Positions 1 through 19,226 of a stretch of 32,000 nucleotides of DNA are shown here, one piece after another (position 1 is the stretch's first letter; each line of letters starts with the position of its first letter). Under the pieces are notes generated by a model. The model did not search any database. It saw nothing but the letters and a program-made list of their open reading frames with translations, and was not told where the DNA came from. The DNA comes from Flavobacteriaceae bacterium. Its GTDB lineage: Bacteria; Bacteroidota; Bacteroidia; Flavobacteriales; Flavobacteriaceae. A program made the position numbers and the translations under genes. The DNA lies in contig OZ245049.1 of the NCBI GenBank assembly GCA_965224465.1, forward strand, positions 810,001-842,000, given 5' to 3'.

Positions 1-1709
<1,709 letters not shown>

Positions 1710-2585: not shown

Positions 2586-3712
2586 CTTAAATTCAAGTAG
2601 TAAATGCAACTTCTTAGATTTGAGAGTTTCTAAGGTTTATTTTTCAAAACAGAAAGAGAGTCACCTCTCCTTCATGTTTTGATGGAATAGTTACCTTACG
2701 CCCTCAAGTCTCTGAAAAAGAAGTAGTATGGCACATTTAACCAAAGAACAAAGATACACAATTACCTGTATGTTATCACAGGGGTATTCTAAGTCCAAAA
2801 TAGCCTTGGCTATAGGGAAACATAAAAGCACTATAAGTAGAGAATGCAAACGTAATTGCGATGCTCGTAGCGGCTCCTATGAATACGAATTAGCACATAG
2901 AAAGTGGAAGGATAGACATAAGAAAAAGCGAAAGCACATTAGGTTTACTGAGAAGATAAGAAGCGAGGTTGAAAAGCTGTTACGTGATGATTATAGTCCA
3001 GGACAAGTGGTTGGAATACTTACTAAGCAAGGAAAAGAAGTTGTTTCAGTAGAACGTATTTATCAGCATATCTGGCAAGATAAGAAGCATAAAGGCACAC
3101 TCTATACTCATTTAAGAAGACAAGGAAGGAAGTACAGGAAACGAGGGGCATTCAAGGACTCACGTGGTATTATTAAAGATCGAATTAGTATTGAAAAACG
3201 ACCAGATATAGTGGAGAAAAGAGAACGTTTTGGAGATTTAGAAGTGGATTTAATAATTGGAAAAAATCATCATCAAGCCATTCTTACAATCAATGACAGG
3301 GCTTCTGGGATGCTAAAGATGAAAAAAATAGCATCTAAAGAATCTTCTGTTGTAACAGCTGCTATTAATGAGCTTTTAGAAGATTGGATACCGTATATAA
3401 ACACTATAACAGCTGATAACGGAAAAGAGTTTGCAGGACATAAAAAAGTAGCTGAATTTTTAGGAATCGATTATTATTTTGCACATCCTTACCATTCATG
3501 GGAAAGAGGATCTAATGAAAATTTAAATGGGCTTATTCGGCAATATTTCCCTAAAGGAAGTGACTTTTCGATATTAACTAAGCAGATGATAAAACAGGTG
3601 GAAGGAAAATTAAATAGAAGGCCTAGGAAAAGGTTTTCATATCAAAACCCTATATTTGTAATGAATCAATTATTGTTTAACCAAAAAGTTGCGTTTATAA
3701 GTTGAATTCAGC
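2586..3712 (+). mobile_element. IS30-family insertion sequence (copy A) with imperfect terminal inverted repeats and a 3-bp ATT target duplication
   Basis: Left end CTTAAATTCAAGTAGTAAATGCAACTT. The reverse complement of the right end is GCTGAATTCAACTTATAAACGCAACTT. ATT occurs at 2583-2585 and 3713-3715; the uninterrupted paralog reads GGTATTTTTCATATATGGG. Confidence 0.88.
2728..3705 (+). CDS. IS30-family DDE transposase
   Basis: 325-aa ORF with an N-terminal HTH-like segment (LTKEQRYTITCMLSQGYSKSKIALAIGKHKSTISRECKRN) and a DDE-type core (GDLEVDLIIGK..., ITADNGKEFAGH, HPYHSWERGSNENLNGLIRQYFPKG). Confidence 0.92.
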   Translation: MAHLTKEQRYTITCMLSQGYSKSKIALAIGKHKSTISRECKRNCDARSGSYEYELAHRKWKDRHKKKRKHIRFTEKIRSEVEKLLRDDYSPGQVVGILTKQGKEVVSVERIYQHIWQDKKHKGTLYTHLRRQGRKYRKRGAFKDSRGIIKDRISIEKRPDIVEKRERFGDLEVDLIIGKNHHQAILTINDRASGMLKMKKIASKESSVVTAAINELLEDWIPYINTITADNGKEFAGHKKVAEFLGIDYYFAHPYHSWERGSNENLNGLIRQYFPKGSDFSILTKQMIKQVEGKLNRRPRKRFSYQNPIFVMNQLLFNQKVAFIS

Positions 3713-4201
3713 ATTTTTTATATATGGGATTTTTGTAAATCGATAGTAACTTTTTATAGATCTCTCCAAGTGGACCATTAACATGGATAGCGATTTGATC
3801 CGATACATTTTCTGGCCATTTTGGAATAGCATCCAAAAGAGCCCCTCCTTTTTCTATAGCACTTACCTTGTTTTGATTAAATCGGATAAGGACCCGTTGT
3901 GTGACTCCCAATGTTCTCTCTAAAGTAATAGCGTGGTATAAACTAATATCACTTTTAATTTCAGTTGGATTTGAAAAGGGTTGCCTGTAAGGTATTGATA
4001 CATCGTGAAAATTTTTCTCTATCCCTAATTCTTGTAGTTGACGGTACACATCTGTAGGAGAACTTCCAATTTTAAGTTTCCATTTTTTCCCACTAGTTAT
4101 GTTTTCAGTTTTCGGAAAATCAACATCTATTTCACACGAGAATAAAAAGAATAAAGAGGCGATTAATAAAGCTATTTTTTTCATGATCTTAATTTATATG
4201 T

Positions 4202-4391
4202 TCAACCATTTATCTTTTTGGATAATTTTCCCACATCGTCATCATCGGCTGCTTTATAAAGATTTTTTACTTCTTTATTTTGATGTTTCCAAAAGAAACC
4301 AGCACTCATGCAGGCATCTTTTAAATTGGAGGCTATTTTTTTTGAAAAAGTTTTAAGTGTTACTATAACGTTTTCTGCAAATAGCGTATAA
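4202..4391 (-). pseudogene. 3'-truncated orphan effector fragment fused to the amplification junction
   Basis: Minus strand encodes ...FSKKIASNLKDACMSAGFFWKHQNKEVKNLYKAADDDDVGKLSKKING then a stop. Homology to the effector ends at 4204/4205, where upstream sequence of the 222-aa lipoprotein gene begins. Confidence 0.8.
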
Positions 4392-5123
4392 TCATTCCTT
4401 TATAATATTTCTTTTAATTTCAGTAATATCTTGTAATTTATTAATATCAATATATTTGTTGTAATTATTAATATTAATTAAGGTATCAAGTTGGTAATAA
4501 TATTCTTCCTCGTCCATCCTAAAATTATATTTCATAAATACTTTATTAATAGTTAATGTATTGTTGTTATTTATTTTAAAGTAAATATCATAAGCTTGTA
4601 AATAATTATTATGCATCTTAAATTTAGCCAAAGTGTCATTAATTTTTATAATTTCTAGTGAACCTGACATATTGCTAGGGCCGTATGGTCTTTTAGCCTC
4701 GCCATAGTTACAATAAGTGTAAAATATAAACTCCTTTTTGTCCTTTGTTTTTTTTAAATGAATAGGATAGGTGCTAAATTTATTAGTCCCTGTTTTATAA
4801 TAACTCAATTCGTTGAAAGATTGAATTACAAATCTTGAAGTTTTATTATTTAAAGTAATTTTACTTTCTGTTTCTTCATTTTCTTTATGAAACAAAACAG
4901 TATCTCCTTCTTTTACTGGAAGTGTATGTATTAGATTTCTAACAAACCCTTTTTTACGTCTATTAGTTTCTATATTACTATAGTCATATATAATAGTATC
5001 TATGACTATAGTATTCTTTTTATTCTCTGTATTTTTTAGAGTCATTTTACAAGAATTTGTAATCATTAAACAAAATAATACTAATAGTACACTACTGGTT
5101 CTTTTCACAATTTTCATAATCAA
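4392..5123 (-). CDS. 243-aa lipoprotein, putative immunity protein (variant a)
   Basis: Signal peptide plus lipobox-like LMITNSC. Paralog of five other ORFs in the window. Start overlaps the preceding effector fragment by 32 nt. Confidence 0.85.
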   Translation of the reverse strand: MIMKIVKRTSSVLLVLFCLMITNSCKMTLKNTENKKNTIVIDTIIYDYSNIETNRRKKGFVRNLIHTLPVKEGDTVLFHKENEETESKITLNNKTSRFVIQSFNELSYYKTGTNKFSTYPIHLKKTKDKKEFIFYTYCNYGEAKRPYGPSNMSGSLEIIKINDTLAKFKMHNNYLQAYDIYFKINNNNTLTINKVFMKYNFRMDEEEYYYQLDTLININNYNKYIDINKLQDITEIKRNIIKE

Positions 5124-5424
5124 ATATTAATTTTAAATCATCTGTATATTTTTGGCGTTGGATTAATCCTTTTGTACCTCCATTTATCTTTTTGGTTAAT
5201 TTTTCCACATCATCATCATCAGCTGCTTTATAAAGATTTTTTACTTCTTTATTTTGATGTTTCCAAAAGAAACCAGCACTCATGCAGGCATCTTTTAAAT
5301 TGGAGGCTATTTTTTTTGAAAAAGTTTTAAGTGTTTCTATAACATTTTCTGCAAATAGCGCATAATCATTCCTTTCTAATATTTCTTTTAATTTCAGTAA
5401 CATCTTGTAATTTATTAATATCAA
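5092..5424 (-). pseudogene. orphan effector C-terminal cassette (tip type 2); here the frame is open for 110 codons
   Basis: The last 63 aa are identical to the C-terminus encoded at 7037-7228. Effector homology begins around TLKTFSKKIASNLKDAC. The extra upstream codons overlap the 3' end of immunity gene 5366-6097. Confidence 0.8.
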
Positions 5425-6097
5425 TATATTTGTTGTAATTATTAATATTAATTAAGGTATCAAGTTGGTAATAATATTCTTCCTCGTCAATCCTAAAATT
5501 ATATTTCATAAATACTTTATTAATAGTTAATGTATTGTTGTTATTTATTTTAAAGTAAATATCATAAGCTTGTAAATTATTATTATGCACATCAAATTTT
5601 GCTAAAGTATCATTGATTTTTATAATATCTACTGCGCTTGACATAGCACTAGGTCCGTATACTTTTTCAGCCTCGCCATAATTACAATAAGTGTAAAATA
5701 TAAACTCCTTTTGGGCCTTTATTTTTTTTAAACTAATAAGGTAGGTGCTAAATTTATTGGTACCTGTTTTATAATAACTCGATCCGTTAGAAGATTGAAC
5801 TACAAAACTTGAAGTATTGTAATTTATATTAATTTTACTTTCTGTTTCTCCATTTTCTTTAAGAAACAAAACAGTATCACCTTCTTTTACAGGAAGTGTA
5901 TGTATTAAGTCCAAATCAAATCCTTCTTTACGTCTATTTGTCTCTATATTACTATAGTCATATATAATAGTATCTATAACGATACTATTACTGCTCTTCT
6001 CTGTGTTTTTTAGAGTCATTTTACAAGAATTTGTAATCATTAAACAAAATAATACTAATAGTACACTACTGGTTCTTTTCACAATTTTCATAATCAA
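5366..6097 (-). CDS. 243-aa lipoprotein, putative immunity protein (variant b)
   Basis: Same N-terminal signal and lipobox and same conserved C-terminal half as the paralogs, with a variable central region. Confidence 0.85.
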   Translation of the reverse strand: MIMKIVKRTSSVLLVLFCLMITNSCKMTLKNTEKSSNSIVIDTIIYDYSNIETNRRKEGFDLDLIHTLPVKEGDTVLFLKENGETESKININYNTSSFVVQSSNGSSYYKTGTNKFSTYLISLKKIKAQKEFIFYTYCNYGEAEKVYGPSAMSSAVDIIKINDTLAKFDVHNNNLQAYDIYFKINNNNTLTINKVFMKYNFRIDEEEYYYQLDTLININNYNKYIDINKLQDVTEIKRNIRKE

Positions 6098-6254
6098 ATA
6101 TTATTTTTAAATCATCCGTATATTTTTGGCGTTGGCTTAATCCATTTCTACCTCCATTTATTGCTTTAGTTATTTTTTTTACATCATCGTCATCAGCAGA
6201 TTTATAAACATCAAAATATTGATTTTGATGTTTCCAAAAGAAACCAGCACTCAT
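6066..6254 (-). pseudogene. orphan effector C-terminal cassette (tip type 3)
   Basis: 62-aa MSAGFFWKHQNQYFDVYKSADDDDVKKITKAINGGRNGLSQRQKYTDDLKIIFDYENCEKNQ, identical to the fragments at 13960-14148 and 15002-15190. There is no N-terminal catalytic part upstream. Confidence 0.85.
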
Positions 6255-6336: not shown

Positions 6337-7068
6337 TCATTCCTTTATAATATTTCTTTTAATTTCAGTAACATCTTGTAGCTTGTAAAGGTCAATATAT
6401 TTATTCTTATTATTAATATTTATTAAGGTATCAAGTTGGTAATAATATTCTTCCTCGTCCATCCTAAAGTTATATTTCATAAATACTTTATTAATAGTTA
6501 ATGTATTGTTATTATCTATTTTAAAGTAAATATCATAAGCTTCTAAATTATTATTATGCACATCAAATTTAGCTAAAGTGTCATTGATTTTTATGATATC
6601 TACTGCGCTTGACATATTACTAGGGCCGTATGGTTTTTTAGCTTCGCCATAGTTACAATAAATATAAAATAGAAACTCCTTTTTGTCCTTTATTTTTTTT
6701 AAATGAATAGGATAGGTGCTAAATTTATTAGTACCTGTTTTATAATATCTCAATTCGTTGAAAGATTGAATTACGAAACTTGAAGTTTTATTATTTATAT
6801 TAATTTTACTTCCTTTCTCTTGTGAAAACTTAATAAACAAAACAGTATCACCTTCTTTTACAGGAAGTGTATGTATTAAGTCCAAATCAAATCCATCTTT
6901 ACGTCTATTAGTTTCTATATTACTATAGTCATAGATAATAGTATCTATAACGATACTATTACTGCTCTTCTCTGTATTTTTTAGAGTCATTTTACAAGAA
7001 CATGTAATAATTAAAGAAAATAATACTAATAGCACACTACTGGTTCTTTTCACAATTTTCATAATCAA
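6337..7068 (-). CDS. 243-aa lipoprotein, putative immunity protein (variant c), directly downstream of the IS66-disrupted effector
   Basis: Paralog of the other immunity-like lipoproteins, with a 32-nt overlap with the effector 3' end. Confidence 0.85.
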   Translation of the reverse strand: MIMKIVKRTSSVLLVLFSLIITCSCKMTLKNTEKSSNSIVIDTIIYDYSNIETNRRKDGFDLDLIHTLPVKEGDTVLFIKFSQEKGSKININNKTSSFVIQSFNELRYYKTGTNKFSTYPIHLKKIKDKKEFLFYIYCNYGEAKKPYGPSNMSSAVDIIKINDTLAKFDVHNNNLEAYDIYFKIDNNNTLTINKVFMKYNFRMDEEEYYYQLDTLININNKNKYIDLYKLQDVTEIKRNIIKE

Positions 7069-7566
7069 ATATTAATTTTAAATCATCTGTATATTTTTGG
7101 CGTTGGATTAATCCTTTTGTACCTCCATTTATCTTTTTGGTTAATTTTTCCACATCATCATCATCAGCTGCTTTATAAAGATTTTTTACTTCTTTATTTT
7201 GATGTTTCCAAAAGAAACCAGCACTCATGCAGGCATCTTTTAAATTGGAGGCTATTTTTTTTGAAAAAGTTTTAAGTGTTTTTAAAAATTTTTCAGGGAA
7301 GCCATGTTTAGTGCCATACTTTGCTAAGTAAGCGGTAACACTTTGGTATTTATCATCACGTTTTGCAATATAAATTTTAAAAAGAGGCGTAAATACTTCA
7401 GTACTATTAGATTCTTTATGAATAATTCTTTCTTGTTCGTCGTAACAAGCTAAATAGTTGTAATCGTGTGTTATTTGTTTTATTCCTCTACCTCTAAATT
7501 CTCTACCTCCATAATAGTTTAAACCATCTCCTTTATTTGTAAGCGTACGGTAAAGTACACCCTTGA

Positions 7567-9069
7567 TTATTTATCAACAGGCTTCCAATTTTGAGGCAGT
7601 AACTCCGAAAGTTTATTAGCCTTATGTTCTGGTAATCTATTAAGGACATCACATAGCCACGTATGTGGGTTTACGTTATTCTTTTTGCAAGTAGCAAAAA
7701 AGCTATAAAATAGAGCTATGTTTTGTGCGGACTCATGACTGCCAGCAAAGAGATAATTTTTTCTGCCAATAGCTAAAGGTCTTATGGCATTTTCTATATT
7801 ATTGTTGTCTATTTCAAACCTGCCATCATCGATGTATAGTTTTAGGTTTTGCCATATTTTAAGAGTATAAGCAATTGCTTTTCCTATGGCACTTTTAGGC
7901 AGTACGTTTTTTCGCTCTTTTGTAAGATAAATTTCTATTCCGTCTAAAACAGGTGATGCATGTTTTTCTCTATATGCTTTAGTTTGCTCAATAGTTAATT
8001 CTTGTTCTTTTATTTTACGTTCTATCTTGTATAGCTTTTGAATTTCCAACAAAACAACATCCGCTCTTTTAGGATCATTATCCAGCGCCTTCTCAAAATA
8101 CCGCCTAGCATGAGCCATGCAACCTAAAAGAGTAATTTCTCCTTTTGTTGTTAAGTTTTGGTATGCAGCATACCCATCGGACTGTAGTGTCCCATTGAAA
8201 TCTTTAAAAAACTCTTCTGGAACAACTTTTCCTCTCCCTTTATTGTATTCAAAAAGAACTAAATTTTTAACAGGATTTCGATACACCCACATATACCCTC
8301 TGTGTGTTGATTTTTTCTTGTCTTTATCTAAAACCTTTATAGGAGATTCGTCTGCTTGAATATAATTGGCATTTTCTAAAAACTGAGCCTTAAATGTATC
8401 GTATAAAGGAGCGATAAGCTCCGAACTTTTAGATACCCATCCTCCAATTGTTGATTTACTTACTTTTAAATCTTGTCGTTTAAAAATTTGAATTAATCTG
8501 TAAAGTGGTAAATGGTCTACAAATTTTGAAATAAGTATAAAGGCCAATAAACTTGCTGATGCATTTCCTTTAGGTATCGGTAAGCTTGGTAATTCTGCTA
8601 TAACAACGCCTTTTTCTTCCGGAAGTGCATATTTAGGTCTTACAATTCGTCTTACAAAAACGGAAAGAGGCGTTATTTCTAAAAGTTCTGTAACTTCTTC
8701 TCCTATTTTTACAGCTCCTTCTTCTATGTGCTTAGGCTCTATAATCTCTTCTACTCTCGGAAAATGCGCAGGTATAGAAGAGCGAACAGGTTTTTTCTTT
8801 CCTTTCTTCTTTTGTTTTCTTTCGTAGATTACAATATGTTTTTTGTATGCCTCTTCTTTCTCAGCTATTATTTTTCCGAAAAGCGACAATTGATTTGTGT
8901 CAACAGGGATAAAACGTTCGCTTTTAGACCCGAAAACCATTCTTTTAAGCTGCTCGTATTGCTGCTTAATTTCAGCTAGTTCTTGAGCTTTTTTTTCAAG
9001 TTCAATCTTTAAAATTACCAGCTCTTTTTGTATGTCTATTGTATTGTTTTCCACACTATAAATATACAA
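7567..9069 (-). CDS. IS66-family transposase (TnpC-type)
   Basis: 500 aa with an N-terminal coiled coil followed by FGSKSERF, a central DDE-like region and CMAHARRYF, all typical of IS66 transposases. Confidence 0.92.
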   Translation of the reverse strand: MYIYSVENNTIDIQKELVILKIELEKKAQELAEIKQQYEQLKRMVFGSKSERFIPVDTNQLSLFGKIIAEKEEAYKKHIVIYERKQKKKGKKKPVRSSIPAHFPRVEEIIEPKHIEEGAVKIGEEVTELLEITPLSVFVRRIVRPKYALPEEKGVVIAELPSLPIPKGNASASLLAFILISKFVDHLPLYRLIQIFKRQDLKVSKSTIGGWVSKSSELIAPLYDTFKAQFLENANYIQADESPIKVLDKDKKKSTHRGYMWVYRNPVKNLVLFEYNKGRGKVVPEEFFKDFNGTLQSDGYAAYQNLTTKGEITLLGCMAHARRYFEKALDNDPKRADVVLLEIQKLYKIERKIKEQELTIEQTKAYREKHASPVLDGIEIYLTKERKNVLPKSAIGKAIAYTLKIWQNLKLYIDDGRFEIDNNNIENAIRPLAIGRKNYLFAGSHESAQNIALFYSFFATCKKNNVNPHTWLCDVLNRLPEHKANKLSELLPQNWKPVDK

Positions 9070-9112
9070 AAAACAAGACTAAATAGCAGGTAAAACCTAC
9101 AGTTTTATTGAA

Positions 9113-9466
9113 TTATTTAGCCTCTAAATAACGTTCGTTTTTCTGAGTATTTATAATACTAATTCCGTCTAAAACCATAACCATTTGGGTATAACTCAAA
9201 ACTACTAATCCATCTTCAATGTCGTATTTTGGAAGCTCAAAAATACCTCGTTCCAATCGTTTATAATACAGTACAAATCCTCCAGGTCGCCAATGAAGAA
9301 GTTTTAGTTTATTTTTTTGCTTATTGATAAATGCATAAACACTATTTCTATCTCGCTCTTGTTCCATGTGCTCACTAACTAATCCACTTAATCCATTAAA
9401 TCCTTTTCGCATATCAACTGCAGATAAGTGATAATAATACGTGTGTTCTGTACCTAATCCTAACAT
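9113..9466 (-). CDS. IS66 Orf2 / TnpB-like accessory protein
   Basis: 117 aa with VDMRKGFNGLSGLV and LLHWRPGGFVLYYKRLERGIFELP, the characteristic IS66 Orf2 pattern, immediately upstream of the transposase. Confidence 0.9.
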   Translation of the reverse strand: MLGLGTEHTYYYHLSAVDMRKGFNGLSGLVSEHMEQERDRNSVYAFINKQKNKLKLLHWRPGGFVLYYKRLERGIFELPKYDIEDGLVVLSYTQMVMVLDGISIINTQKNERYLEAK

Positions 9467-10106
9467 TTATATTTTCGTTTTTGTTTAGATGCAAAAATTA
9501 GATTATTTTTAACTTCTTACAAGATGTAGTTCTCCGTACGCTTACCTTTATTTAGAGCTTCATAGGTATTTACAAATCTTGTTGATTCATGGTAAGATTG
9601 TGCTAGAAAATGAATTTTACGAATACATGTTTTTATGTCATATTTATTAAAAGTTTTGTTTAGGTATTCTGCAAATAGGCTATAATTGTTTGCCTCACTA
9701 GATTTTATTTTTTCACTTCTTTTAGATTGAAAAATATTAGTTCCTAAATCTGAAAATTTTGTTATCCTCTTAACAACTCTTTTAATTTCTTCTTTTCCTT
9801 CGTACTCTTTAGAAGAATATGTGCCTTTTTCTTTATCTATTAATTTGTAGAATCCTTTTTTCTTTTTTCTATCTTTTAATTCAAAAAATTCATCCCCATT
9901 GGCATTGCTATATAATTTATTTCCATTTTTATGAGATTGACCTTGGGCTTCAACTACAACTTCTTTTTCTCTTAATTCCTTAACTATCTTTTTTAACTCT
10001 GTTACTGTTATATCCCTATTACAATAACAAGGTTCAATAATGTTTAAATCTTCAAATTCATGACTTATATGTTCATGTTCTGTAAACCAAGCTCTTCCCA
10101 TAGTAT

Positions 10107-10805
10107 TTAGTTTTGTTCTGTAATTGTTTTTAACTTTAATTTCATTGTATCAGCCGTTATATTTACATGTAATATATCGTCTGTTAAAACTTCATTATTA
10201 TACTCAAAATCTAATTTGTTATTATCAAGGTCAATAGCCAATTCTTTACCCGCAGCGTTTAATGTTTTTAAAACAAAAAAGACTTCTTTACCTCGTTTTA
10301 AATTATTTTTTGGCATTTTATTACCCTCTAAATCGGTATAATACATTTCTATAATTTCAGGTTCTTCTTGTTGCTCTATTACAGTTGGTTCAACTTCTAT
10401 AAAAGGATCTTCAAACACCCAATTTTCTATTTTTTTAACATCTTTTATTTTAACAGCTCCACACGTTATCTCTAAATTAATGTGTAAGGGTAAATTGTCT
10501 TGATTGTCAAATTCTTCTGTAAGGCCTACAATATAGGCTTTGTGGAATTCTACTTTGTACAAGGTTTTAAACTCATCTCTGTCATAAAATATTAATTCAC
10601 CGCTAAAACTAGCATTTGGTGAAAACATATAGTGATACAAATCGCTATCAAACCCCGTAGATTCAAACATTAAATGGAATGGGCTTTTACGCGTTGTTGT
10701 CGTAGGATTTCCCGTAATATCTTTTAGTTTGTATAAGGTGTATTCTGCTCTTAATAACGTTCTTTCTTTTCCATCTATAATGGCGATGCCTTTAAAACTA
10801 CTCAT
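10107..10805 (-). CDS. tssD: type VI secretion tube protein TssD/Hcp-like with a ~95-aa C-terminal extension (copy 2)
   Basis: The N-terminal ~130 aa follow the Bacteroidota TssD pattern (see feature 17031-17729). Differs from copy 3 at one residue. Confidence 0.8.
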   Translation of the reverse strand: MSSFKGIAIIDGKERTLLRAEYTLYKLKDITGNPTTTTRKSPFHLMFESTGFDSDLYHYMFSPNASFSGELIFYDRDEFKTLYKVEFHKAYIVGLTEEFDNQDNLPLHINLEITCGAVKIKDVKKIENWVFEDPFIEVEPTVIEQQEEPEIIEMYYTDLEGNKMPKNNLKRGKEVFFVLKTLNAAGKELAIDLDNNKLDFEYNNEVLTDDILHVNITADTMKLKLKTITEQN

Positions 10806-11632
10806 GGCTTTTCAATTTCTGGATTCATCTTTTAATTTTTAATAGTTATAGATATTTTCTTACCCTGACACTAGCCCCATAGTATCACAATAGCAATTCC
10901 GAACATGATGGTATATCCATTTAGTTCACATTACAGGACGGGCTTATTATTAGGGTGTATCTATTTTTTTAAACGTAGGTCAAATATATAAAATAATGTT
11001 ATACGCAGCATGTTTTTATGGTTTACCCCCACATTTTAGGGGGTAAATCCCCGTAGCGCTGTCTAGAAACAGAAAACAATCTTTCGGAGTGCACCTTGTA
11101 CCCTCAGGTAAAAGCTGTTGGCTACAGATATAGTACTGTTTATTTGGTAATTACAAGAGGTTGACGGCTCTTTTACGTAGCTATAAAAACAGGAATTAAT
11201 CAAGTAGAATTACGATTAGTACACGTCCAATAAACCTGACGAGAATAAGCCCCTATAAATCATAACAAATCAATAAGACTCAAAACAAGAACAATTGCGT
11301 ACCTGTAAAAAAAAAGGTTGAAATATAGGGGGTTGTTCAAAGCAAGGAAACAAAAATCACAAATTAAAACATGCATCATGACAAGTAAAAATACAGATGT
11401 ATACTGCGCATATCTTTTACGTCACAAATAGCAAGAACGCTTGCCTATAAAAAAATACAATTTGTAAAAATTTCCGGGTGCGCGTGAAATTATATACCTG
11501 TGTTAATCTGTTTAAGTTTATGTTGTTCTAATTACAGTTTTCTCCCTCAATTTGAGCGTTTAATTCTCAGAGACGCTGCCTCTAAATAAAGAATAGTCTT
11601 TCAAAGTAAAGATCAAACCCTTAGAGGGGGAT
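10806..11632 (-). repeat. ~830-nt non-coding spacer between the lipoprotein gene and tssD (copy 2)
   Basis: No ORF of 60 aa or more on either strand. Near-identical to 17730-18557. Its lipoprotein-proximal half also occurs at 1921-2385. Confidence 0.9.
11022..11047. other. perfect 9-bp GC-rich stem-loop inside the spacer (TTTACCCCC-ACATTTTA-GGGGGTAAA)
   Basis: Read directly from the sequence. Not followed by a T-run on either strand, so it is not a canonical terminator. An identical copy lies at 17946-17971. Confidence 0.6.
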
Positions 11633-12301
11633 TTAGTTTACAATATCATCTTCGTTATACTCGTGTCTTATTTTAAATAGTTTATCCTTTTTAAAGAATA
11701 AAGACACTGAGGAATTCCCTGCCCTTGTAGAATTAATAGCATGAGAAAATGTAAAGTGCCACACATTATAATTCATCATATCTGGGTCAAAATCTTTTTC
11801 CAACCACTTATTAGAAAGCACAATTTGGTATTTTTCATATATGGGATTTTTGTAAATCGCTAGCAACTTTTTATAGATCTCTCCAAGTGGATCATTAACA
11901 TGGATAGCGATTTTATCCGATACATTTTCTGGCCATTTTGGAATAGCATCCAAAAGAGCCCCTCCTATTTCTATAGCACTTACCTTGTTTTGATTAAATC
12001 GGATAAGGATCCGTTGTGTGACTCCCAATGTTCTCTCTAAAGTAATAGCGTGGTATAAACTAATATCACTTTTAATTTCAGTTGGATTTGAAAAGGGTTG
12101 CCTGTAAGGTATTGAAACATCGTGAAAATTTTTCTCTATCCCTAATTCTTGTAGTTGACGGTACACGTCTATAGGAGAACTTCCAATTTGAAGTGTCCAT
12201 TTTTTCCCACTAGTTATGTTTTCAGTTTTCGGAAAATCATCATCTATTTCACACGAGAATAAAAAGAATAAAGAGGCGATTAATAAAGCTATTTTTTTCA
12301 T
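11633..12301 (-). CDS. 222-aa lipoprotein of unknown function (copy 2)
   Basis: MKKIALLIASLFFLFSCEIDDD... has a signal peptide plus lipobox Cys. By hand alignment it differs from copy 3 at 9 nucleotides, 6 of which change the amino acid. Confidence 0.85.
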   Translation of the reverse strand: MKKIALLIASLFFLFSCEIDDDFPKTENITSGKKWTLQIGSSPIDVYRQLQELGIEKNFHDVSIPYRQPFSNPTEIKSDISLYHAITLERTLGVTQRILIRFNQNKVSAIEIGGALLDAIPKWPENVSDKIAIHVNDPLGEIYKKLLAIYKNPIYEKYQIVLSNKWLEKDFDPDMMNYNVWHFTFSHAINSTRAGNSSVSLFFKKDKLFKIRHEYNEDDIVN

Positions 12302-12319
12302 GATCTTAATTTTATATGT

Positions 12320-12566
12320 TCAACCATTTATCTTTTTGGATAATTTTCCAACATCATCATCATCGGCTGCTTTATAAAGACCTTTTACTTCTTTATCTTG
12401 ATGTTTCCAAAAGAAACCAGCGCTCATGCAGGCATCTTTTAAATTGGAGGCTATTTTTTTTTGAAAAAGTTTTAAGTGTTACTATAACGTTTTCTGCAAA
12501 TAGCGTATAATCATTCCTTTATAATATTTCTTTTAATTTCAGTAATATCTTGTAATTTATTAATAT
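12320..12566 (-). pseudogene. 3'-truncated orphan effector fragment plus the last ~18 codons of an immunity gene, cut by IS30 copy B
   Basis: Encodes ...ACMSAGFFWKHQDKEVKGLYKAADDDDVGKLSKKING then a stop (12320-12427). Same junction with lipoprotein-upstream DNA as at 4204/4205. 12510-12566 matches an immunity 3' end (compare 4392-4447). Confidence 0.8.
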
Positions 12567-13691
12567 GCTGAATTCAAGTCACAAACGCAACTTTTAGTTA
12601 AATAATAATTGTTCCATTACAAATATAGGGTTTTGATATTTATGTCTCTTCCTAGGTCTGTTATTTAATTTTGTTTCTACCTCTTTGATTCTTTGATCTG
12701 TTAGGTTTGTAAAGTCACTTCCTTTGGCAAAATATTGTCTAATCAAACCATTTAAATTTTCGTTAGATCCTCTTTCCCAAGAGTGATATGGATGCGCAAA
12801 AAAGTAATCAATACATAAATTTTCTGCAACCTGCTCATGGCCTGCAAATTCTTTTCCATTATCAGCTGTTATAGTATGTAGATAAGGCTTCCAGTCTTCT
12901 AATATTTCATTGATAGCTTTAGTGACAACAACTGCTTCTTTAGAGCTTACTTTTTTCATTTTAAGCATTCCAGAAGCTCTATCATTTACGGTAAGTATGG
13001 CTTGATTATGGTTTTTACCTATGATTAAATCGACCTCTAAATCTCCAAATCGATTTCTTTGTTCAACAACTTCAGGGCGTTGTTCTATACTAATACGATT
13101 CTTTATAACCCCTCTAGAATCCTTTGATGAGCCACGTTTTCTATATCTCCTTCCCTGTCTGCGAAGGTGTGTATGTAAATCACCATCATTCCTCTTGTCT
13201 TCCCTAATATGCTGATATATACGCTCAATAGACACCGTTTCTTTACCTTGTTTTTTTAGGACACCAACTACTTGCTCAGGACTATAATCGTCTCGCAATA
13301 ACAACTCTATTGCTTGTTGAATATCTTCTGTAAAGCGTTTTCTTTTAGGCTTTTCTTTATGACGTTTAGCATACTTTTTTTGGGCTAATTCATGCTTGTA
13401 AACTCCATTTCTTTTGTCTGAATTACGCTTAATCTCTTTGCTAATAACAGACTTGTCTTTTCCTATAGCAGCTGCTATCTCAACCTGTTTATAACCTTGT
13501 TTTAACATGCAACAAATTGTGTATCTTTGCGCTTGGGTGATGTGTTTCATACAACTTCTTTTTTCGAGATTTGAGACCGTAAGATACATATCCATCAAGA
13601 CAAGAAAGGTAGGTTTTCCTACTTTTCTGTTTTGAAAATATAACCATCATAGAATCAAATCGAAAAGTTGCGTTTATTAGTTGAATTTAAG
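12567..13691 (-). mobile_element. IS30-family insertion sequence (copy B, inverted relative to copy A, diverged), with no target duplication
   Basis: Ends are GCTGAATTCAAGTCACAAACGCAACTT and AAGTTGCGTTTATTAGTTGAATTTAAG. The flanking triplets differ (TAT / AAT), and the flanks come from different parts of immunity genes. Confidence 0.85.
12594..13598 (-). CDS. IS30-family DDE transposase (the true start may be the internal MKHITQAQRYT at 13550)
   Basis: 334-aa ORF collinear with 2728-3705 (same HTH and DDE-region motifs) but with many substitutions. Confidence 0.9.
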   Translation of the reverse strand: MMDMYLTVSNLEKRSCMKHITQAQRYTICCMLKQGYKQVEIAAAIGKDKSVISKEIKRNSDKRNGVYKHELAQKKYAKRHKEKPKRKRFTEDIQQAIELLLRDDYSPEQVVGVLKKQGKETVSIERIYQHIREDKRNDGDLHTHLRRQGRRYRKRGSSKDSRGVIKNRISIEQRPEVVEQRNRFGDLEVDLIIGKNHNQAILTVNDRASGMLKMKKVSSKEAVVVTKAINEILEDWKPYLHTITADNGKEFAGHEQVAENLCIDYFFAHPYHSWERGSNENLNGLIRQYFAKGSDFTNLTDQRIKEVETKLNNRPRKRHKYQNPIFVMEQLLFN

Positions 13692-13991
13692 AATTAAAAA
13701 ACTTGAAGTTTTATTATTTATATTAATTTTACTTTCTCTTTCTCTATTTTCTTTAAGAAACAAAACAGTATCACCTTCTTTTACAGGAAGTGTATGTATT
13801 AAATCCAAATCAAATCCATCTTTACGTCTATTAGTTTCTATATTACTATAGTCATAGATAATAGTATCTATAACGATACTATTACTGCTCTTCTCTGTGT
13901 TTTTTAGAGTCATTTTACAAGAATTTGTAATCATTAAACAAAATAATACTAATAGTACACTACTGGTTCTTTTCACAATTTTCATAATCAA
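13692..13991 (-). pseudogene. immunity lipoprotein gene truncated after ~100 codons by IS30 copy B
   Basis: ORF 13677-13991 matches the d/e-type immunity N-terminus through KTSSFLI and then reads into the IS end. Confidence 0.85.
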
Positions 13992-14261
13992 ATATTATTT
14001 TTAAATCATCCGTATATTTTTGGCGTTGGCTTAATCCATTTCTACCTCCATTTATTGCTTTAGTTATTTTTTTTACATCATCGTCATCAGCAGATTTATA
14101 AACATCAAAATATTGATTTTGATGTTTCCAAAAGAAACCAGCACTCATGCAGGCATCTTTTAAATTGGAGGCTATTTTTTTTGAAAAAATTTTAAGTGTT
14201 ACTAAAAAGTTTTCAGGGAAGCCATGTTTAGTACCATACTTTGCTAAATAAGCCGTAACAC
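13960..14261 (-). pseudogene. orphan effector C-terminal cassette (tip type 3) with longer upstream homology
   Basis: Effector homology extends upstream to VTAYLAKYGTKHGFPENFLVTLKIFSKKIASNLKDAC and breaks at about 14261. Confidence 0.8.
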
Positions 14262-14292
14262 ATGGTTAGCAACTGGGCTTTTTTTAGTGATT

Positions 14293-15033
14293 TCAATAAT
14301 TGTACTTTCTTCTATTTTTTTTATCTCGAGCAGCCCTTTTTAGCTTGTAAAGATCAATATATTTGTTCTTGTGATTAATATTTATTAAGGTATCTAGTTG
14401 ACTATAAAATCTTTCCTCTTCATTCATGAAATTATATTTAATAATTACTTTATTAATAGTTAATGTATTGTTATTATCAATTTTAAAGTAAATATCATAA
14501 GCTTGTAAATTATTATTATGCACCTTAAATTTAGCCAAAGTGTCATTAATCTTTATAATTTCTAGTGAGCCTGACATATTGCTAGGGCCGTATGGTCTTT
14601 CAGCTTCGCCATAGTTACAATAAATGTAAAATGTAGACACCTTTTTTGTCTTTTTGTTTTTAATACTAATTGGGTAGGTGTTAAATTTATTAGTCCCTGT
14701 TTTATAATAACTCGATCCGTTGCTAGAAGATTGAATTAAAAAACTTGAAGTTTTATTATTTATATTAATTTTACTTTCTCTTTCTCTATTTTCTTTAAGA
14801 AACAAAACAGTATCACCTTCTTTTACAGGAAGTATATGTATTAAATCCAAATCAAATCCATCTTTACGTCTATTTGTCTCTATATTACTATAGTCATATA
14901 TAATAGTATCTATAACGATACTATTACTGCTCTTCTCTGTGTTTTTTAGAGTCATTTTACAAGAATTTGTAATCATTAAACAAAATAATACTAATAGTAC
15001 ACTACTGGTTCTTTTCACAATTTTCATAATCAA
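14293..15033 (-). CDS. 246-aa lipoprotein, putative immunity protein (variant d, altered C-terminus)
   Basis: Almost identical to 15273-16007 over most of its length. It ends ...YKLKRAARDKKNRRKYNY instead of ...YKLQDVTEIKRNIIKE. Confidence 0.85.
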   Translation of the reverse strand: MIMKIVKRTSSVLLVLFCLMITNSCKMTLKNTEKSSNSIVIDTIIYDYSNIETNRRKDGFDLDLIHILPVKEGDTVLFLKENRERESKININNKTSSFLIQSSSNGSSYYKTGTNKFNTYPISIKNKKTKKVSTFYIYCNYGEAERPYGPSNMSGSLEIIKINDTLAKFKVHNNNLQAYDIYFKIDNNNTLTINKVIIKYNFMNEEERFYSQLDTLININHKNKYIDLYKLKRAARDKKNRRKYNY

Positions 15034-15190
15034 ATATTATTTTTAAATCATCCGTATATTTTTGGCGTTGGCTTAATCCATTTCTACCTCCATTTATTGC
15101 TTTAGTTATTTTTTTTACATCATCGTCATCAGCAGATTTATAAACATCAAAATATTGATTTTGATGTTTCCAAAAGAAACCAGCACTCAT
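15002..15190 (-). pseudogene. orphan effector C-terminal cassette (tip type 3)
   Basis: 62-aa fragment identical to those at 6066-6254 and 13960-14148, preceded by ...FSKKIASNLKDAC homology only. Confidence 0.85.
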
Positions 15191-15272
15191 GCAGGCATCT
15201 TTTAAATTGGAGGCTATTTTTTTTGAAAAAATTTTAAGTGTTTCTATAACGTTTTCTGCAAATAGCGTATAA

Positions 15273-16007
15273 TCATTCCTTTATAATATTTCTTTTAATT
15301 TCAGTAACATCTTGTAGCTTGTAAAGGTCAATATATTTATTCTTATTATTAATATTTATTAAGGTATCAAGTTGGTAATAATATTCTTCCTCGTCCATCC
15401 TAAAGTTATATTTCATAAATACTTTATTAATAGTTAATGTATTGTTATTATCAATTTTAAAGTAAATATCATAAGCTTGTAAATTATTATTATGCACCTT
15501 AAATTTAGCCAAAGTGTCATTAATCTTTATAATTTCTAGTGAGCCTGACATATTGCTAGGGCCGTATGGTCTTTCAGCTTCGCCATAGTTACAATAAATG
15601 TAAAATGTAGACACCTTTTTTGTCTTTTTGTTTTTAATACTAATTGGGTAGGTGTTAAATTTATTAGTCCCTGTTTTATAATAACTCGATCCGTTGCTAG
15701 AAGATTGAATTAAAAAACTTGAAGTTTTATTATTTATATTAATTTTACTTTCTCTTTCTCTATTTTCTTTAAGAAACAAAACAGTATCACCTTCTTTTAC
15801 AGGAAGTATATGTATTAAATCCAAATCAAATCCATCTTTACGTCTATTAGTTTCTATATTACTATAGTCATAGATAATAGTATCTATAACGATACTATTA
15901 CTGCTCTTCTCTGTATTTTTTAGAGTCATTTTACAAGAATTTGTAATCATTAAACATAATAATACAAATAGTACACTACTGGTTCTTTTCACAATTTTCA
16001 TAATCAA
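15273..16007 (-). CDS. 244-aa lipoprotein, putative cognate immunity protein of the intact effector (variant e)
   Basis: Signal peptide plus LMITNSC lipobox. The start overlaps the effector stop region by 32 nt. Confidence 0.85.
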   Translation of the reverse strand: MIMKIVKRTSSVLFVLLCLMITNSCKMTLKNTEKSSNSIVIDTIIYDYSNIETNRRKDGFDLDLIHILPVKEGDTVLFLKENRERESKININNKTSSFLIQSSSNGSSYYKTGTNKFNTYPISIKNKKTKKVSTFYIYCNYGEAERPYGPSNMSGSLEIIKINDTLAKFKVHNNNLQAYDIYFKIDNNNTLTINKVFMKYNFRMDEEEYYYQLDTLININNKNKYIDLYKLQDVTEIKRNIIKE

Positions 16008-17025
16008 ATATTAATTTTAAATCATCTGTATATTTTTGGCGTTCCTTTAATCCAGTAACTCCACCATTTATCTTATCAGTTAGTTCTTCTACATCGTCAT
16101 CATCAGCTGCTTTATAAAGATTTTTTACTTCTTTATTTTGATGTTTCCAAAAGAAACCAGCACTCATGCAGGCATCTTTTAAATTGGAGGCTATTTTTTT
16201 TGAAAAAGTTTTAAGTGTTTTTAAAAATTTTTCAGGGAAGCCATGTTTAGTGCCATACTTTGCTAAGTAAGCGGTAACACTTTGGTATTTATCATCACGT
16301 TTTGCAATATAAATTTTAAAAAGAGGCGTAAATACTTCAGTACTATTAGATTCTTTATGAATAATTCTTTCTTGTTCGTCGTAACAAGCTAAATAGTTGT
16401 AATCGTGTGTTATTTGTTTTATTCCTCTACCTCTAAATTCTCTACCTCCATAATAGTTTAAACCATCTCCTTTATTTAGAGCTTCATAGGTATTTACAAA
16501 TCTTGTTGATTCATGGTAAGATTGTGCTAGAAAATGAATTTTACGAATACATGTTTTTATGTCATATTTATTAAAAGTTTTGTTTAGGTATTCTGCAAAT
16601 AGGCTATAATTGTTTGCCTCACTAGATTTTATTTTTTCACTTCTTTTAGATTGAAAAATATTAGTTCCTAAATCTGAAAATTTTGTTATCCTCTTAACAA
16701 CTCTTTTAATTTCTTCTTTTCCTTCGTACTCTTTAGAAGAATATGTGCCTTTTTCTTTATCTATTAATTTGTAGAATCCTTTTTTCTTTTTTCTATCTTT
16801 TAATTCAAAAAATTCATCCCCATTGGCATTGCTATATAATTTATTTCCATTTTTATGAGATTGACCTTGGGCTTCAACTACAACTTCTTTTTCTCTTAAT
16901 TCCTTAACTATCTTTTTTAACTCTGTTACTGTTATATCCCTATTACAATAACAAGGTTCAATAATGTTTAAATCTTCAAATTCATGACTTATATGTTCAT
17001 GTTCTGTAAACCAAGCTCTTCCCAT
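15976..17025 (-). CDS. putative T6SS cargo effector: GH19/COG3179-type lysozyme-like peptidoglycan hydrolase with a charged N-terminal region (intact copy)
   Basis: Contains IHFLAQSYHESTRF (catalytic Glu context), FRGRGIKQITHDYNY, CMSAGFFWKHQ and INGGVTGLKERQ. These match the predicted-chitinase/GH19 lysozyme family pattern as I recall it. Starts 5 nt after tssD. Confidence 0.8.
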   Translation of the reverse strand: MGRAWFTEHEHISHEFEDLNIIEPCYCNRDITVTELKKIVKELREKEVVVEAQGQSHKNGNKLYSNANGDEFFELKDRKKKKGFYKLIDKEKGTYSSKEYEGKEEIKRVVKRITKFSDLGTNIFQSKRSEKIKSSEANNYSLFAEYLNKTFNKYDIKTCIRKIHFLAQSYHESTRFVNTYEALNKGDGLNYYGGREFRGRGIKQITHDYNYLACYDEQERIIHKESNSTEVFTPLFKIYIAKRDDKYQSVTAYLAKYGTKHGFPEKFLKTLKTFSKKIASNLKDACMSAGFFWKHQNKEVKNLYKAADDDDVEELTDKINGGVTGLKERQKYTDDLKLIFDYENCEKNQ

Positions 17026-17030
17026 AGTAT

Positions 17031-17729
17031 TTAGTTTTGTTCTGTAATTGTTTTTAACTTTAATTTCATTGTATCAGCCGTTATATTTACATGTAATATA
17101 TCGTCTGTTAAAACTTCATTATTATACTCAAAATCTAATTTGTTATTATCAAGGTCAATAGCCAATTCTTTACCTGCAGCGTTTAATGTTTTTAAAACAA
17201 AAAAGACTTCTTTACCTCGTTTTAAATTATTTTTTGGTATTTTATTACCCTCTAAATCGGTATAATACATTTCTATAATTTCAGGTTCTTCTTGTTGCTC
17301 TATTACAGTTGGTTCAACTTCTATAAAAGGATCTTCAAACACCCAATTTTCTATTTTTTTAACATCTTTTATTTTAACAGCTCCACACGTTATCTCTAAA
17401 TTAATGTGTAAGGGTAAATTGTCTTGATTGTCAAATTCTTCTGTAAGGCCTACAATATAGGCTTTGTGGAATTCTACTTTGTACAAGGTTTTAAACTCAT
17501 CTCTGTCATAAAATATTAATTCACCGCTAAAACTAGCATTTGGAGAAAACATATAGTGATACAAATCGCTATCAAACCCCGTAGATTCAAACATTAAATG
17601 GAATGGGCTTTTACGCGTTGTTGTCGTAGGATTTCCCGTAATATCTTTTAGTTTGTATAAGGTGTATTCTGCTCTTAATAACGTTCTTTCTTTTCCATCT
17701 ATAATGGCGATGCCTTTAAAACTACTCAT
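17031..17729 (-). CDS. tssD: type VI secretion tube protein TssD/Hcp-like with a ~95-aa C-terminal extension (copy 3)
   Basis: MSSFKGIAIIDGKERTLLRAEYTLYKLKDITGNPTTTTRKSPFHLMFESTGFDSDLYHYMF...GELIFYDRDE...YIVGLTEEFD...INLEITCGAVKIKDVKKIENW is collinear with Bacteroidota TssD proteins. Then comes an acidic linker EVEPTVIEQQEEPEIIE and an extra domain. Confidence 0.8.
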   Translation of the reverse strand: MSSFKGIAIIDGKERTLLRAEYTLYKLKDITGNPTTTTRKSPFHLMFESTGFDSDLYHYMFSPNASFSGELIFYDRDEFKTLYKVEFHKAYIVGLTEEFDNQDNLPLHINLEITCGAVKIKDVKKIENWVFEDPFIEVEPTVIEQQEEPEIIEMYYTDLEGNKIPKNNLKRGKEVFFVLKTLNAAGKELAIDLDNNKLDFEYNNEVLTDDILHVNITADTMKLKLKTITEQN

Positions 17730-18557
17730 GGCTTTTCAATTTCTGGATTCATCTTTTAATTTTTAATAGTTATAGATATTTTCTTACCCTGACACTAGCC
17801 CCATAGTATCACAATAGCAATTCCAAACATGATGGTATATCCATTTAGTTCACATTACAGGACGGGCTTATTATTAGGGTGTATCTATTTTTTTAAACGT
17901 AGGTCAAATATATAAAATAATGTTATACGCAGCATGTTTTTATGGTTTACCCCCACATTTTAGGGGGTAAATCCCCGTAGCGCTGTCTAGAAACAGAAAA
18001 CAATCTTTCGGAGTGCACCTTGTACCCTCAGGTAAAAGCTGTTGATTACAGGTATAGTGCTGTTTATCTAGTAATTACAAGAGGTTGACGGCTCTTTTAC
18101 TCAGCTATAAAAACAGGAATTAATCAAGTAGAATTACGATTAGTACACGTCCAATAAACCTGACGAGAATAAGCCCCCTATAAATCATAACAAATCAATA
18201 AGACTCAAAACAAGAACAATTGCGTACCTGTAAAAAAAAAGGTTGAAATATAGGGGGTTGTTCAAAGCAAGGAAACAAAAATCACAAATTAAAACATGCA
18301 TCATGACAAGTAAAATCACAGATGTATACAGCACATATCTTTTACGTCACAAATAGCAAGAACGCTTGCCTATAAAAAAATACAATTTGTAAAAATTTCC
18401 TGGTGCGCGTGAAATTATATACCTGTGTTAATCTGTTTAAGTTTATGTTGTTCTAATTACAGTTTTCTCCCTCAATTTGAGCGTTTAATTCTCAGAGACG
18501 CTGCCTCTAAATAAAGAATAGTCTTTCAAAGTAAAGATCAACCCCTAGGAAGGGGAT
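17730..18557 (-). repeat. ~830-nt non-coding spacer between the lipoprotein gene and tssD (copy 3)
   Basis: Near-identical to 10806-11632, with small clusters of substitutions (for example around 18040-18075 and 18310-18345). Confidence 0.9.
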
Positions 18558-19226
18558 TTAGTTTACAATATCATCTTCGTTATACTCGTGTCTTATTTTA
18601 AATAGTTTATCCTTTTTAAAGAATAAAGACACTGAGGAATTCCCTGCCCTTGTAGAATTAATAGCATGAGAAAATGTAAAGTGCCACACATTATAATTCA
18701 TCATATCTGGGTCAAAATCTTTTTCCAACCACTTATTAGAAAGCACAATTTGGTGTTTTTCATATATGGGATTTTTGTAAATCGATAGCAACTTTTTATA
18801 GATCTCTCCAAGTGGATCATTAACATGGATAGCGATTTGATCCGATACATTTTCTGGCCATTTTGGAATAGCATCCAAAAGAGCCCCTCCTTTTTCTATA
18901 GCACTTACCTTGTTTTGATTAAATAGGATAAGGATCCGTTGTGTGACTCCCAATGTTCTCTCTAAAGTAATAGCGTGGTATAAACTAATATCACTTTTAA
19001 TTTCAGTTGGATTTGAAAAGGGTTGCCTGTAAGGTATTGAAACATCGTGAAAATCTTTCTCTATCCCTAATTCTTGTAGTTGACGGTACACATCTATAGG
19101 AGAACTTCCAATTTGAAGTGTCCATTTTTTTCCACTAGTTATGTTTTCAGTTTTCGGAAAATCATCATCTATTTCACACGAAAATAAAAAGAATAAAGAG
19201 GCGATTAATAAAGCTATTTTTTTCAT
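18558..19226 (-). CDS. 222-aa lipoprotein of unknown function (copy 3); candidate orphan immunity protein of the upstream metallopeptidase remnant
   Basis: Signal peptide plus lipobox (LFFLFSC). Starts 61 nt downstream of the stop of the HExxH fragment. Confidence 0.85.
   Translation of the reverse strand: MKKIALLIASLFFLFSCEIDDDFPKTENITSGKKWTLQIGSSPIDVYRQLQELGIEKDFHDVSIPYRQPFSNPTEIKSDISLYHAITLERTLGVTQRILILFNQNKVSAIEKGGALLDAIPKWPENVSDQIAIHVNDPLGEIYKKLLSIYKNPIYEKHQIVLSNKWLEKDFDPDMMNYNVWHFTFSHAINSTRAGNSSVSLFFKKDKLFKIRHEYNEDDIVN

Follow-up and report, generated by a model that had tools for sequence, protein, structure and literature searches.

Organization of the effector-immunity arrays

The 32,000-nucleotide (nt) stretch of a Flavobacteriaceae genome analysed here (positions 810,001 to 842,000 of contig OZ245049.1, assembly GCA_965224465.1; hereafter, the window) contains two tandem paralogous blocks, A and B, each consisting of an hcp/tssD gene, a gene for a predicted lysozyme-like effector, and an array in which 5'-truncated copies of the effector gene (tip cassettes) alternate with genes for putative immunity proteins. 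The subject of this analysis is the 3' end of one effector copy, which is identical to one of these cassettes. The blocks were delineated by self-comparison and tblastn, and all genes relevant to the array are on the minus strand, so that the coordinates below run downwards in the order of reading.

Block A consists of a lipoprotein gene (18558-19226), hcp/tssD (17031-17729), effector copy 3 (E3; 15976-17025), which is an intact open reading frame (ORF) of 349 aa, its immunity gene (15273-16007), and two tip/immunity units, A2 (cassette, 15002-15190; immunity gene, 14293-15033) and A3 (cassette, 13960-14148, or 13960-14259, ~100 codons, with its longer 5' junction; truncated immunity gene, 13677-13991). 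The truncated gene abuts an IS30-family insertion sequence (IS) element (12567-13676, minus strand; transposase, 12594-13598), beyond which lie the terminal portion of an immunity gene and a tip remnant (12323-12494). Block B has the same beginning, with a lipoprotein gene (11633-12301), hcp/tssD (10107-10805; the product is 99.6% identical to the block A copy), effector copy 2 (E2), and an immunity-like lipoprotein gene (6337-7068), and continues with units B2 (cassette, 6066-6254; immunity gene, 5366-6097) and B3 (cassette, 5089-5336, with the ORF at 5092-5283 and an extension to 5424; immunity-like lipoprotein gene, 4392-5123), a tip remnant (4205-4375), and a third lipoprotein gene that is split by another IS30-family element. 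Both remnants are truncated at the 3' end and run, through the same junction, into the sequence that precedes the next lipoprotein gene. Altogether, the two arrays include 3 + 3 units and 2 remnants, with a unit period of ~974 bp; the 1-kb units are 85-92% identical and the 7-kb blocks, 99%. In every unit, the immunity ORF overlaps the preceding effector or cassette ORF, with its start codon within the final 32 nt of the latter.

The tips in the window fall into three types: type a in E2 and B3, with a variant, a', in the two remnants (~3-6% different from a); type b in the three cassettes A2, A3, and B2; and type c in E3 only. The cores of the immunity genes represent four alleles, namely, allele 1 next to E3 and in unit A2, where the gene has a divergent 3' end; allele 2 next to E2, unique in the window; allele 3 after cassette B2; and allele 4 after cassette B3.

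The preliminary description of this locus assumed two full-length effector copies. However, a 2,007-bp IS66-family element (7539-9545, minus strand) interrupts E2 behind codon 186 and divides it into a 5' fragment (codons 1-186; 9546-10101) and a 3' fragment (codons ~184-349; 7037-7538), the end of which is the 63-aa ORF at 7037-7228. Judging from this disruption, E2 is now a pseudogene, a caution against taking an apparently full-length second copy at face value.

The effector is a predicted peptidoglycan hydrolase linked to type VI secretion

The effector consists of an N-terminal beta-rich domain and a GH19-like lysozyme/endolysin domain. It has no match in Pfam or NCBIfam, and the GH19 family proper (PF00182) was detected only in one distant homolog (P0090). 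Nevertheless, the C-terminal domain matches the PWe2 endolysin by sequence (PDB 9ms7, 2.9e-10), and the AlphaFold2 model of E3 (predicted local distance difference test score (pLDDT) 90) retrieved, in a Foldseek search, the same endolysin (9ms7, 2.3e-6), a Pseudomonas aeruginosa GH19 endolysin (9eoi), TseP (8xcl), and Streptomyces chitinase C (1wvv). The C-terminal domain is thus predicted to adopt the GH19 fold. Two glutamates, E172 and E181, are invariant in 70 homologs, and we take them, by analogy with GH19, to be the catalytic pair. The cassettes cover only residues 250/263-349, that is, the last 87-100 codons, lacking E172, E181, and the N-terminal domain. Consequently, they encode no active enzyme and are inert; rather than complete alternative toxin domains, they are sub-domain fragments of one GH19-like domain. 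The immunity-like protein carries a lipoprotein-type signal (Cys25) and is modelled as all-beta (pLDDT 76); a PDB fold search with this model yielded no significant match.

The hcp/tssD gene (Pfam PF17642, 1e-24) lies 6 nt upstream of the effector gene. The gene order is the same in L036, a Tenacibaculum metagenome-assembled genome (MAG), where the effector homolog follows a long TssD and lies beside TssC and ClpV; in another locus (L035), the homolog is located beside VgrG, a PAAR-like gene, and Tle1-like genes. From this gene context, the locus is best described as a type VI secretion system (T6SS) cargo module of the Bacteroidota type, comprising Hcp/TssD, a putative peptidoglycan hydrolase, and a putative periplasmic lipoprotein immunity protein. 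The Hcp/TssD proteins here (232 aa) belong to long forms of 232-233 aa, with the TssD domain extending to about residue 130 and followed by an extension of ~100 aa without a solid family match. In L036, there are two long TssD genes (7212-7913 and 9297-9998), each ahead of a putative effector, a pattern that suggests one dedicated carrier Hcp per effector.

A delimited exchange between effector copy 2 and cassette B3

As stated in the preliminary description, E2 and E3 are identical over residues 1-186 (10101-9544); 6 residues differ in the C-terminal part (7537-7040, 96.4% identity). In the DNA, the two copies differ at 17 positions, all of which lie within a single 53-nt patch, a-type in E2 (7105-7157) and c-type in E3 (16044-16096; VEELTDKINGGVTGLKE), with no differences in 9546-10101, 7158-7538, or 7034-7104. 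The odds of 17 differences falling within one 53-nt segment of a 1050-nt gene are ~1e-19.

The E2 tip had been reported to be identical to the product of the cassette at 5092-5283, and this identity extends to the DNA: E2 and B3 share an uninterrupted run of 248 nt (7034-7281 = 5089-5336) that includes 37 consecutive concordant sites (p<0.0005 in a GENECONV-style permutation of an alignment of five units with 277 polymorphic columns). The upstream limit of the run is the end of the homology between cassette and effector. Downstream, the identity stops at 7033/5088, and the immunity genes beyond this point differ at 26 of 199 and 41 of 342 sites. With both borders mapped, the exchanged tract is delimited to between 53 nt at the minimum and 248 nt at the maximum. 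The alignment proposed earlier as a check of these borders thus revealed neither differences scattered over 7034-7281 nor a tract that fades into its surroundings.

Of the codons that differ in the patch, six show synonymous changes only, and another six carry amino acid replacements (E314K, D317K, V323T, T324K, K327I, and E328Q), with proportions of synonymous and nonsynonymous differences of ~0.56 and ~0.19, respectively. The replaced residues fall in alignment columns that are variable (high-entropy) across the family, and L315, T316, I319, N320, G321, G325, and R329 are retained despite the change of the patch. Such high synonymous divergence between identical flanks, which include a 122-nt block with 100% identity between E2, E3, and B3 as well as a block of 71 nt on the 3' side, implies that old alleles were joined by recombination, as opposed to recent mutation. 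The origin of the patch by recombination is, on this comparison, strongly supported, and a recent exchange between E2 and B3 very probably took place.

The array is a mosaic

The patch had been described as the only divergence within a very recent duplication. This description does not apply beyond the effector genes, and the duplication is not pristine. The immunity genes adjacent to E2 and E3 differ at 62 sites (7 in the signal peptide and 55 in the 320-nt core), followed by 330 nt at the end of the alignment that are identical, and the 2.8 kb upstream (Hcp, intergenic region, and lipoprotein) contain 31 differing sites (1.1%). Many of the upstream differences are clustered, for example, at 11121-11178. 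In contrast, outside the patch, the effector bodies show 0 differences in 937 positions (9546-10101 and 7158-7538 versus 16097-17025). The absence of differences in the effector bodies, compared with 31 upstream, suggests later homogenization, such that the effector gene would have been homogenized separately from the adjoining region.

Tracts as significant as that between E2 and B3 connect other parts of the array: the E3 and A2 units share 429 identical nt spanning the immunity core, A2 and B2 share 385 nt spanning the b tip and the 5' end of the immunity gene, and E3 and E2 share the 330-nt tract. Equally strong tracts thus link silent units and immunity genes, which points to general concerted evolution of the tandem array. 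The whole array is a recombining mosaic in which conserved blocks homogenize and old variable cores persist. The four core alleles of the immunity gene are separated by synonymous divergence (dS) of 0.13-0.35, and the ratio of nonsynonymous to synonymous divergence (dN/dS) is 0.4-0.9 in the core versus 0.1-0.25 in the flanks.

The A2/A3 junction (14149-14300) differs from the others: the 5' junction of the A3 cassette is longer, with effector homology from about codon 250, and the immunity gene that precedes this cassette has a divergent C-terminus (KLKRAARDKKNRRKYNY). Together, these two features indicate that the arrays were built by at least two independent truncation events.

Homologous loci

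The closest homologs of the effector are those of Tenacibaculum ovolyticum (71% and 54% identity). No closer strain was found in the collections searched: the best match in a scan of species-representative genomes had 40% identity, protein database matches above 71% came only from the source genome, and an exact 30-mer scan of metagenomes returned no matches. A profile scan of metagenomes identified 5 distant loci. A search with the 63-aa tip retrieved only ORFs of the source genome, a result that is weak on absence elsewhere because known full-length homologs were missed as well.

In T. ovolyticum (L027) and in the MAG GCA_947493665.1 (L034; 10001-13655), full-length effector-immunity pairs are arranged in tandem and there are no tip-only cassettes. 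The two effectors of L034 are ~100% identical over the first 660 nt, but identity between the tandem pairs drops to 55-85% in the 3' third and in the immunity gene, a whole-gene counterpart of the tip-cassette arrangement. This pattern indicates that the C-terminal third and the immunity gene together make up a swappable polymorphic module of this effector family.

Psychroserpens sp. NJDZ02 (L040, CP039451.1) encodes two orphan immunity homologs (65-74% identity), each in a repeated module (9378-10726 and 14979-16360). In both modules, a gene of the SUKH/SMI1_KNR4 immunity family is fused to a 31-codon tip remnant that is followed by the orphan immunity homolog. With no effector nearby, these modules look like an orphan-immunity island directed against the effector family. 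Isolated tip remnants are present also in two metagenome contigs (L030 and L031). The a' remnants in the window are cut (4205-4215 and 12323-12333) just after a conserved island, ATAAATGG(T)GG, which contains the INGG codons; the remnants in L040 (9931-9945 and 15550-15564) and L038 (24-40) begin at this same island, fused to the end of the SUKH/SMI1_KNR4 gene. The coincidence of illegitimate junctions on one island across genera may be fortuitous or may reflect a preferred breakpoint.

Direction of the exchange and alternative explanations

In the preliminary description, the patch was explained by gene conversion from a cassette into the effector. The recombination itself is well supported, as shown above; the direction, cassette to effector, is favored but unproven, and the following comparisons make it the probable one. 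The c patch of E3 differs from the third effector of T. ovolyticum and from the Logan contig L039 at 8 of 53 positions, in line with its 5' flank (20 of 123), whereas the a patch differs from the full-length effectors of these outgroups at 15 of 53 positions. In the same outgroups, a c-like tip is natively paired with an immunity core resembling that of E2 (50 differences in 318 positions versus 60-67 for the other cores), and 3 of the 5 E2-specific signal-peptide sites match the outgroups. The metagenomic locus L037 is informative with respect to the cassettes: its full-length effector has a b-like tip (7 of 53 differences), and among the immunity genes of the window, the one that follows cassette B2 has the most similar core (19 of 318 differences versus 36-44). 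Because this pairing matches that of a b cassette with its immunity gene, we take the cassette units to be displaced modules of formerly full-length pairs. No short ORF with a c-type tip was found among the called proteins of the source genome, where only a, b, and a' types are present, and no full-length effector with an a tip was found in homolog searches.

The best explanation of the locus as a whole, to which we assign a probability of roughly 0.6, is a mosaic T6SS effector/immunity array in which E2 and B3 exchanged DNA, probably from cassette to effector. Under this scenario, the ancestral effector would have had the c tip and an E2-type immunity gene; following the block duplication, the tip in block B would have been overwritten from cassette B3, and the immunity core in block A, by the allele common to unit A2. 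The near-identical blocks that flank the two variable cores (the effector tip and immunity codons ~80-185) would permit homologous recombination, presumably of the RecA type, and the array would be a patchwork of recent non-reciprocal exchanges, one of which, 53-248 nt long, gave E2 its B3-identical 3' end. The swap would have replaced six predicted exposed residues around the conserved INGGxxGLxxR motif, shifting the net charge by about +5, and might thereby affect recognition by the immunity protein. As all immunity alleles are still present in the array, protection of the cell would not be lost. The IS66 insertion inactivated copy 2 later.

Several observations weigh against this scenario. 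The outgroups used to assign the direction are mosaics in their own right, with identities of only 59-73%, and the signal from the immunity core is modest (50 versus 60-67 of 318). Two sites private to E3 (columns 303 and 312 of the alignment) lie just past its stop codon, as would be expected if E3 were the converted copy, and a c-type donor could have been lost from array A through a deletion associated with the IS30-family element. At least 370 nt of the array are missing next to the element at 12567-13676, so that this is not a simple insertion. Neither the patch nor the immunity core reaches a dN/dS ratio of 1. The proposal that the patch sets immunity specificity is weakened by the lack of one-to-one pairing between tips and cores within the window, where cores 1 and 3 both come after a b tip and core 1 is found after the c tip as well. 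No T6SS core genes were found among the genes of the 32-kb window. Finally, with no closer strain in the collections searched, the evidence comes from one genome.

Some of these observations fit the opposite course of events, in which the ancestral tip was a-type and B3 was overwritten from E2 or is its homogenized descendant, with the c patch of E3 introduced by homologous recombination from a since-deleted cassette or foreign DNA. The a lineage is old at this locus, given the ~3-6% divergence of the a' remnants; the private sites of E3 adjoin the patch; the IS30-linked deletion could have taken the donor; c-like tips circulate in other species; and the two copies were apparently homogenized (0 of 937 versus 1.1%), a process that the patch could have escaped. 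However, this course requires at least two events where one suffices, and it has to accommodate a c patch that is collinear with the effector backbone in comparisons with the outgroups and an a patch that is not, the outgroup arrangement of a c-like tip beside a copy-2-like immunity gene, and the failure to find a full-length a-tipped effector anywhere. We consider it possible, if rather unlikely.

An explanation without any conversion is that B3 is a recent tandem duplicate of the E2 3' end produced by unequal crossing-over, and the array, a passive fossil of effectors displaced one after another, without later exchange. Indeed, most of the cassette 5' junctions are identical, so that the units did multiply from one founder by tandem duplication; in Vibrio cholerae, immunity arrays with 3' remnants of effectors have been explained by displacement (PMC5361080); and the orphan immunity genes of Psychroserpens retain only the 31-codon tip remnant. 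Nevertheless, the abrupt end of identity at 7033/5088, with divergent immunity genes beyond it, speaks against simple duplication, and so does the junction upstream of 5336, where the cassette has the standard immunity-to-cassette sequence instead of effector sequence. Furthermore, a b unit lies between E2 and B3, and duplication alone does not generate the several other short identical tracts between divergent units. Simple tandem duplication was rejected on the strength of the tract borders and the junction structure, and this explanation as a whole appears improbable.

A false patch created by misplacement of reads between repeats during assembly or polishing is a concern in a region this rich in repeats (1-kb units at 85-92% and 7-kb blocks at 99% identity), but is very improbable: the source record consists of one 5.24-Mb contig, reads would not cross-map over a 53-nt patch with 17 mismatches, the IS insertions have clean target duplications, and the mosaic pattern is coherent with the alleles of the outgroups. 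The least credible proposal, that local hypermutation or diversifying selection, for example, through a diversity-generating retroelement, produced the same patch independently twice, accords with the family-wide variability of the replaced positions but founders on the six codons that differ only synonymously, the mixed, not adenine-specific, substitution spectrum, the exact 248-nt identity to the cassette, and the lack of a reverse transcriptase among the window ORFs; a diversity-generating retroelement was accordingly rejected on the spectrum and the missing reverse transcriptase.

A stronger version of the favored scenario holds that the array is a working diversification device, in which short conversions rewrite the immunity-contacting surface of a single-domain hydrolase effector and the linked immunity alleles would guard against every variant that can be produced. 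On this view, its operation would have been caught at two moments, in block B with a new tip beside the native immunity gene and in block A with the native tip beside an immunity core that is new. We regard this as unlikely. The earlier wording, conversion from a cassette into the expression site, goes too far, and a directed system of this kind is not supported by these sequence comparisons: the putative expression site, E2, is now dead through the IS66 insertion, and equally strong tracts link silent units and immunity genes.

Insertion sequences, transcription signals, and flanking genes

The complete IS66-family element in E2 (Pfam DDE_Tnp_IS66, 1e-93; TnpB_IS66, 4e-29) encodes tnpB (9113-9466) and tnpC (7567-9069), both on the minus strand, and no tnpA-like ORF. 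Its ends carry terminal inverted repeats (GTAAGCGTACGG), and 8 bp of target sequence (AAATAAAG) are duplicated on either side, at 7531-7538 and 9546-9553. The clean duplication shows that the two halves of E2 formed one gene at the time of insertion. The element could be polar on the downstream immunity array. The third lipoprotein gene (3708-4184 and 2389-2586) is split by the second IS30-family element (2589-3705, plus strand; transposase, 2728-3705), which is only ~72% identical to the one in block A. The lipoprotein itself (222 aa) is present in three copies, one at the head of each block and the IS30-split one, which is the oldest (3-4.5% diverged).

Bacteroidota-type -7 motifs (TATATTTG) were detected only upstream of each hcp gene (17912 and 10988), and no minus-strand terminator-like hairpins were found inside the arrays. 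Read-through transcription of the arrays is therefore plausible, and so, from these motifs, is their co-transcription from the hcp side. A terminator-like hairpin (18542-18555) follows the block A lipoprotein gene. A sigma-70 promoter scan gave fewer hits than expected from shuffled sequence and is uninformative for Bacteroidota. Rfam and tRNA scans of the window returned no matches. The end of the duplicated region is marked by a minus-strand ORF that runs off the left end of the window (3-1709) and encodes a KatG-like peroxidase-family protein with a lipoprotein-like signal (Pfam PF00141, 5.5e-55).

Comparison with known systems

The DNA swap described here is real and belongs to a type that had been recognized before at other toxin loci of bacteria. 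Outside of toxins, the array resembles Neisseria pilE/pilS, in which one expressed gene is accompanied by promoterless partial copies, with mosaic patches between conserved blocks. However, there are only 4-6 cassettes here, and the tracts also link silent units, which argues against strict directionality. No G-quadruplex motif was found in the window, nor was any other recombination initiator, and conversion driven by G-quadruplexes was rejected on this ground. A programmed switch of the pilE/pilS type is thus not supported by the sequence.

Among toxin systems, the Rhs and CdiA loci also combine a full-length toxin gene with subsequent 5'-truncated C-terminal (CT) fragments, each with its own immunity gene, and a homology block is common to the main gene and the orphan. 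Orphan Rhs-CT and CdiA-CT modules are well known (Poole 2011, PMC3150448), and recombination of an orphan with the main gene has been demonstrated experimentally in Salmonella (Koskiniemi 2014, PMC3967940). There, recombination alters the deployed toxin while immunity is retained, and the process proposed here would match. The differences are in scale and substrate. In Rhs and CdiA, the orphan specifies a complete toxin domain that differs from that of the main gene, the carrier is very large, and the Salmonella event was a rearrangement that produced a fusion. In the present arrays, the fragment makes up the last quarter of the same GH19-like domain, the carrier is a small cargo effector linked to Hcp, the variants (6-15 residues) are alleles, and a short patch was exchanged with the donor kept.

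The MafB toxins of Neisseria (Jamet 2015, PMC4287609) are small and globular, and CT cassettes that are silent or lack a start codon lie downstream of the toxin gene, every one with an immunity gene behind it; genome comparison has shown that a cassette in one strain equals the expressed CT in another (PMC4287609). MafB differs in the secretion route and the toxin folds, whole CT domains are exchanged, and the evidence comes from comparison between strains, whereas here it comes from paralogs within one genome. The arrays of V. cholerae (Kirchberger 2017, PMC5361080) are likewise T6SS cargo loci with orphan immunity genes, retained 3' ends of effectors, and homologous recombination, but hold unrelated immunity families from different effector types; all units in the present arrays are alleles of one family, mostly with one founder junction and short intra-array conversion tracts. 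The general description of polymorphic toxin loci (PMC3482391) matches the architecture as well.

With respect to the effector itself, the fold and motif of the C-terminal domain resemble those of GH19 endolysins and of the lysozyme domain of the T6SS effector TseP (9ms7, 9eoi, 8xcl; PMC11893102). TseP is a peptidoglycan-cleaving effector neutralized by an immunity protein (PMC11893102), a role that is predicted here. The present effector differs in having no Pfam GH19 match, a distinct N-terminal beta domain, and an all-beta lipoprotein immunity protein without a relative in PDB.

Thus, a T6SS peptidoglycan-hydrolase effector from a marine, Tenacibaculum-like member of the Flavobacteriaceae joins the toxins with orphan tip/immunity cassettes. 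Pieces as short as 53-248 nt pass between a cassette and a full-length gene at this locus, with the borders delimited, and the exchangeable C-terminal third with its immunity gene, here and in L034, points to the probable seat of immunity recognition; three tips and four immunity cores make a small testable matrix. The locus opens no new mechanism, and its value is that of a clean natural example. If the array were a diversification device after all, cassette-based toxin switching would extend from swaps of whole domains, as in Rhs, CdiA, and MafB, to fine-scale retargeting within one catalytic domain in the T6SS of Bacteroidota.

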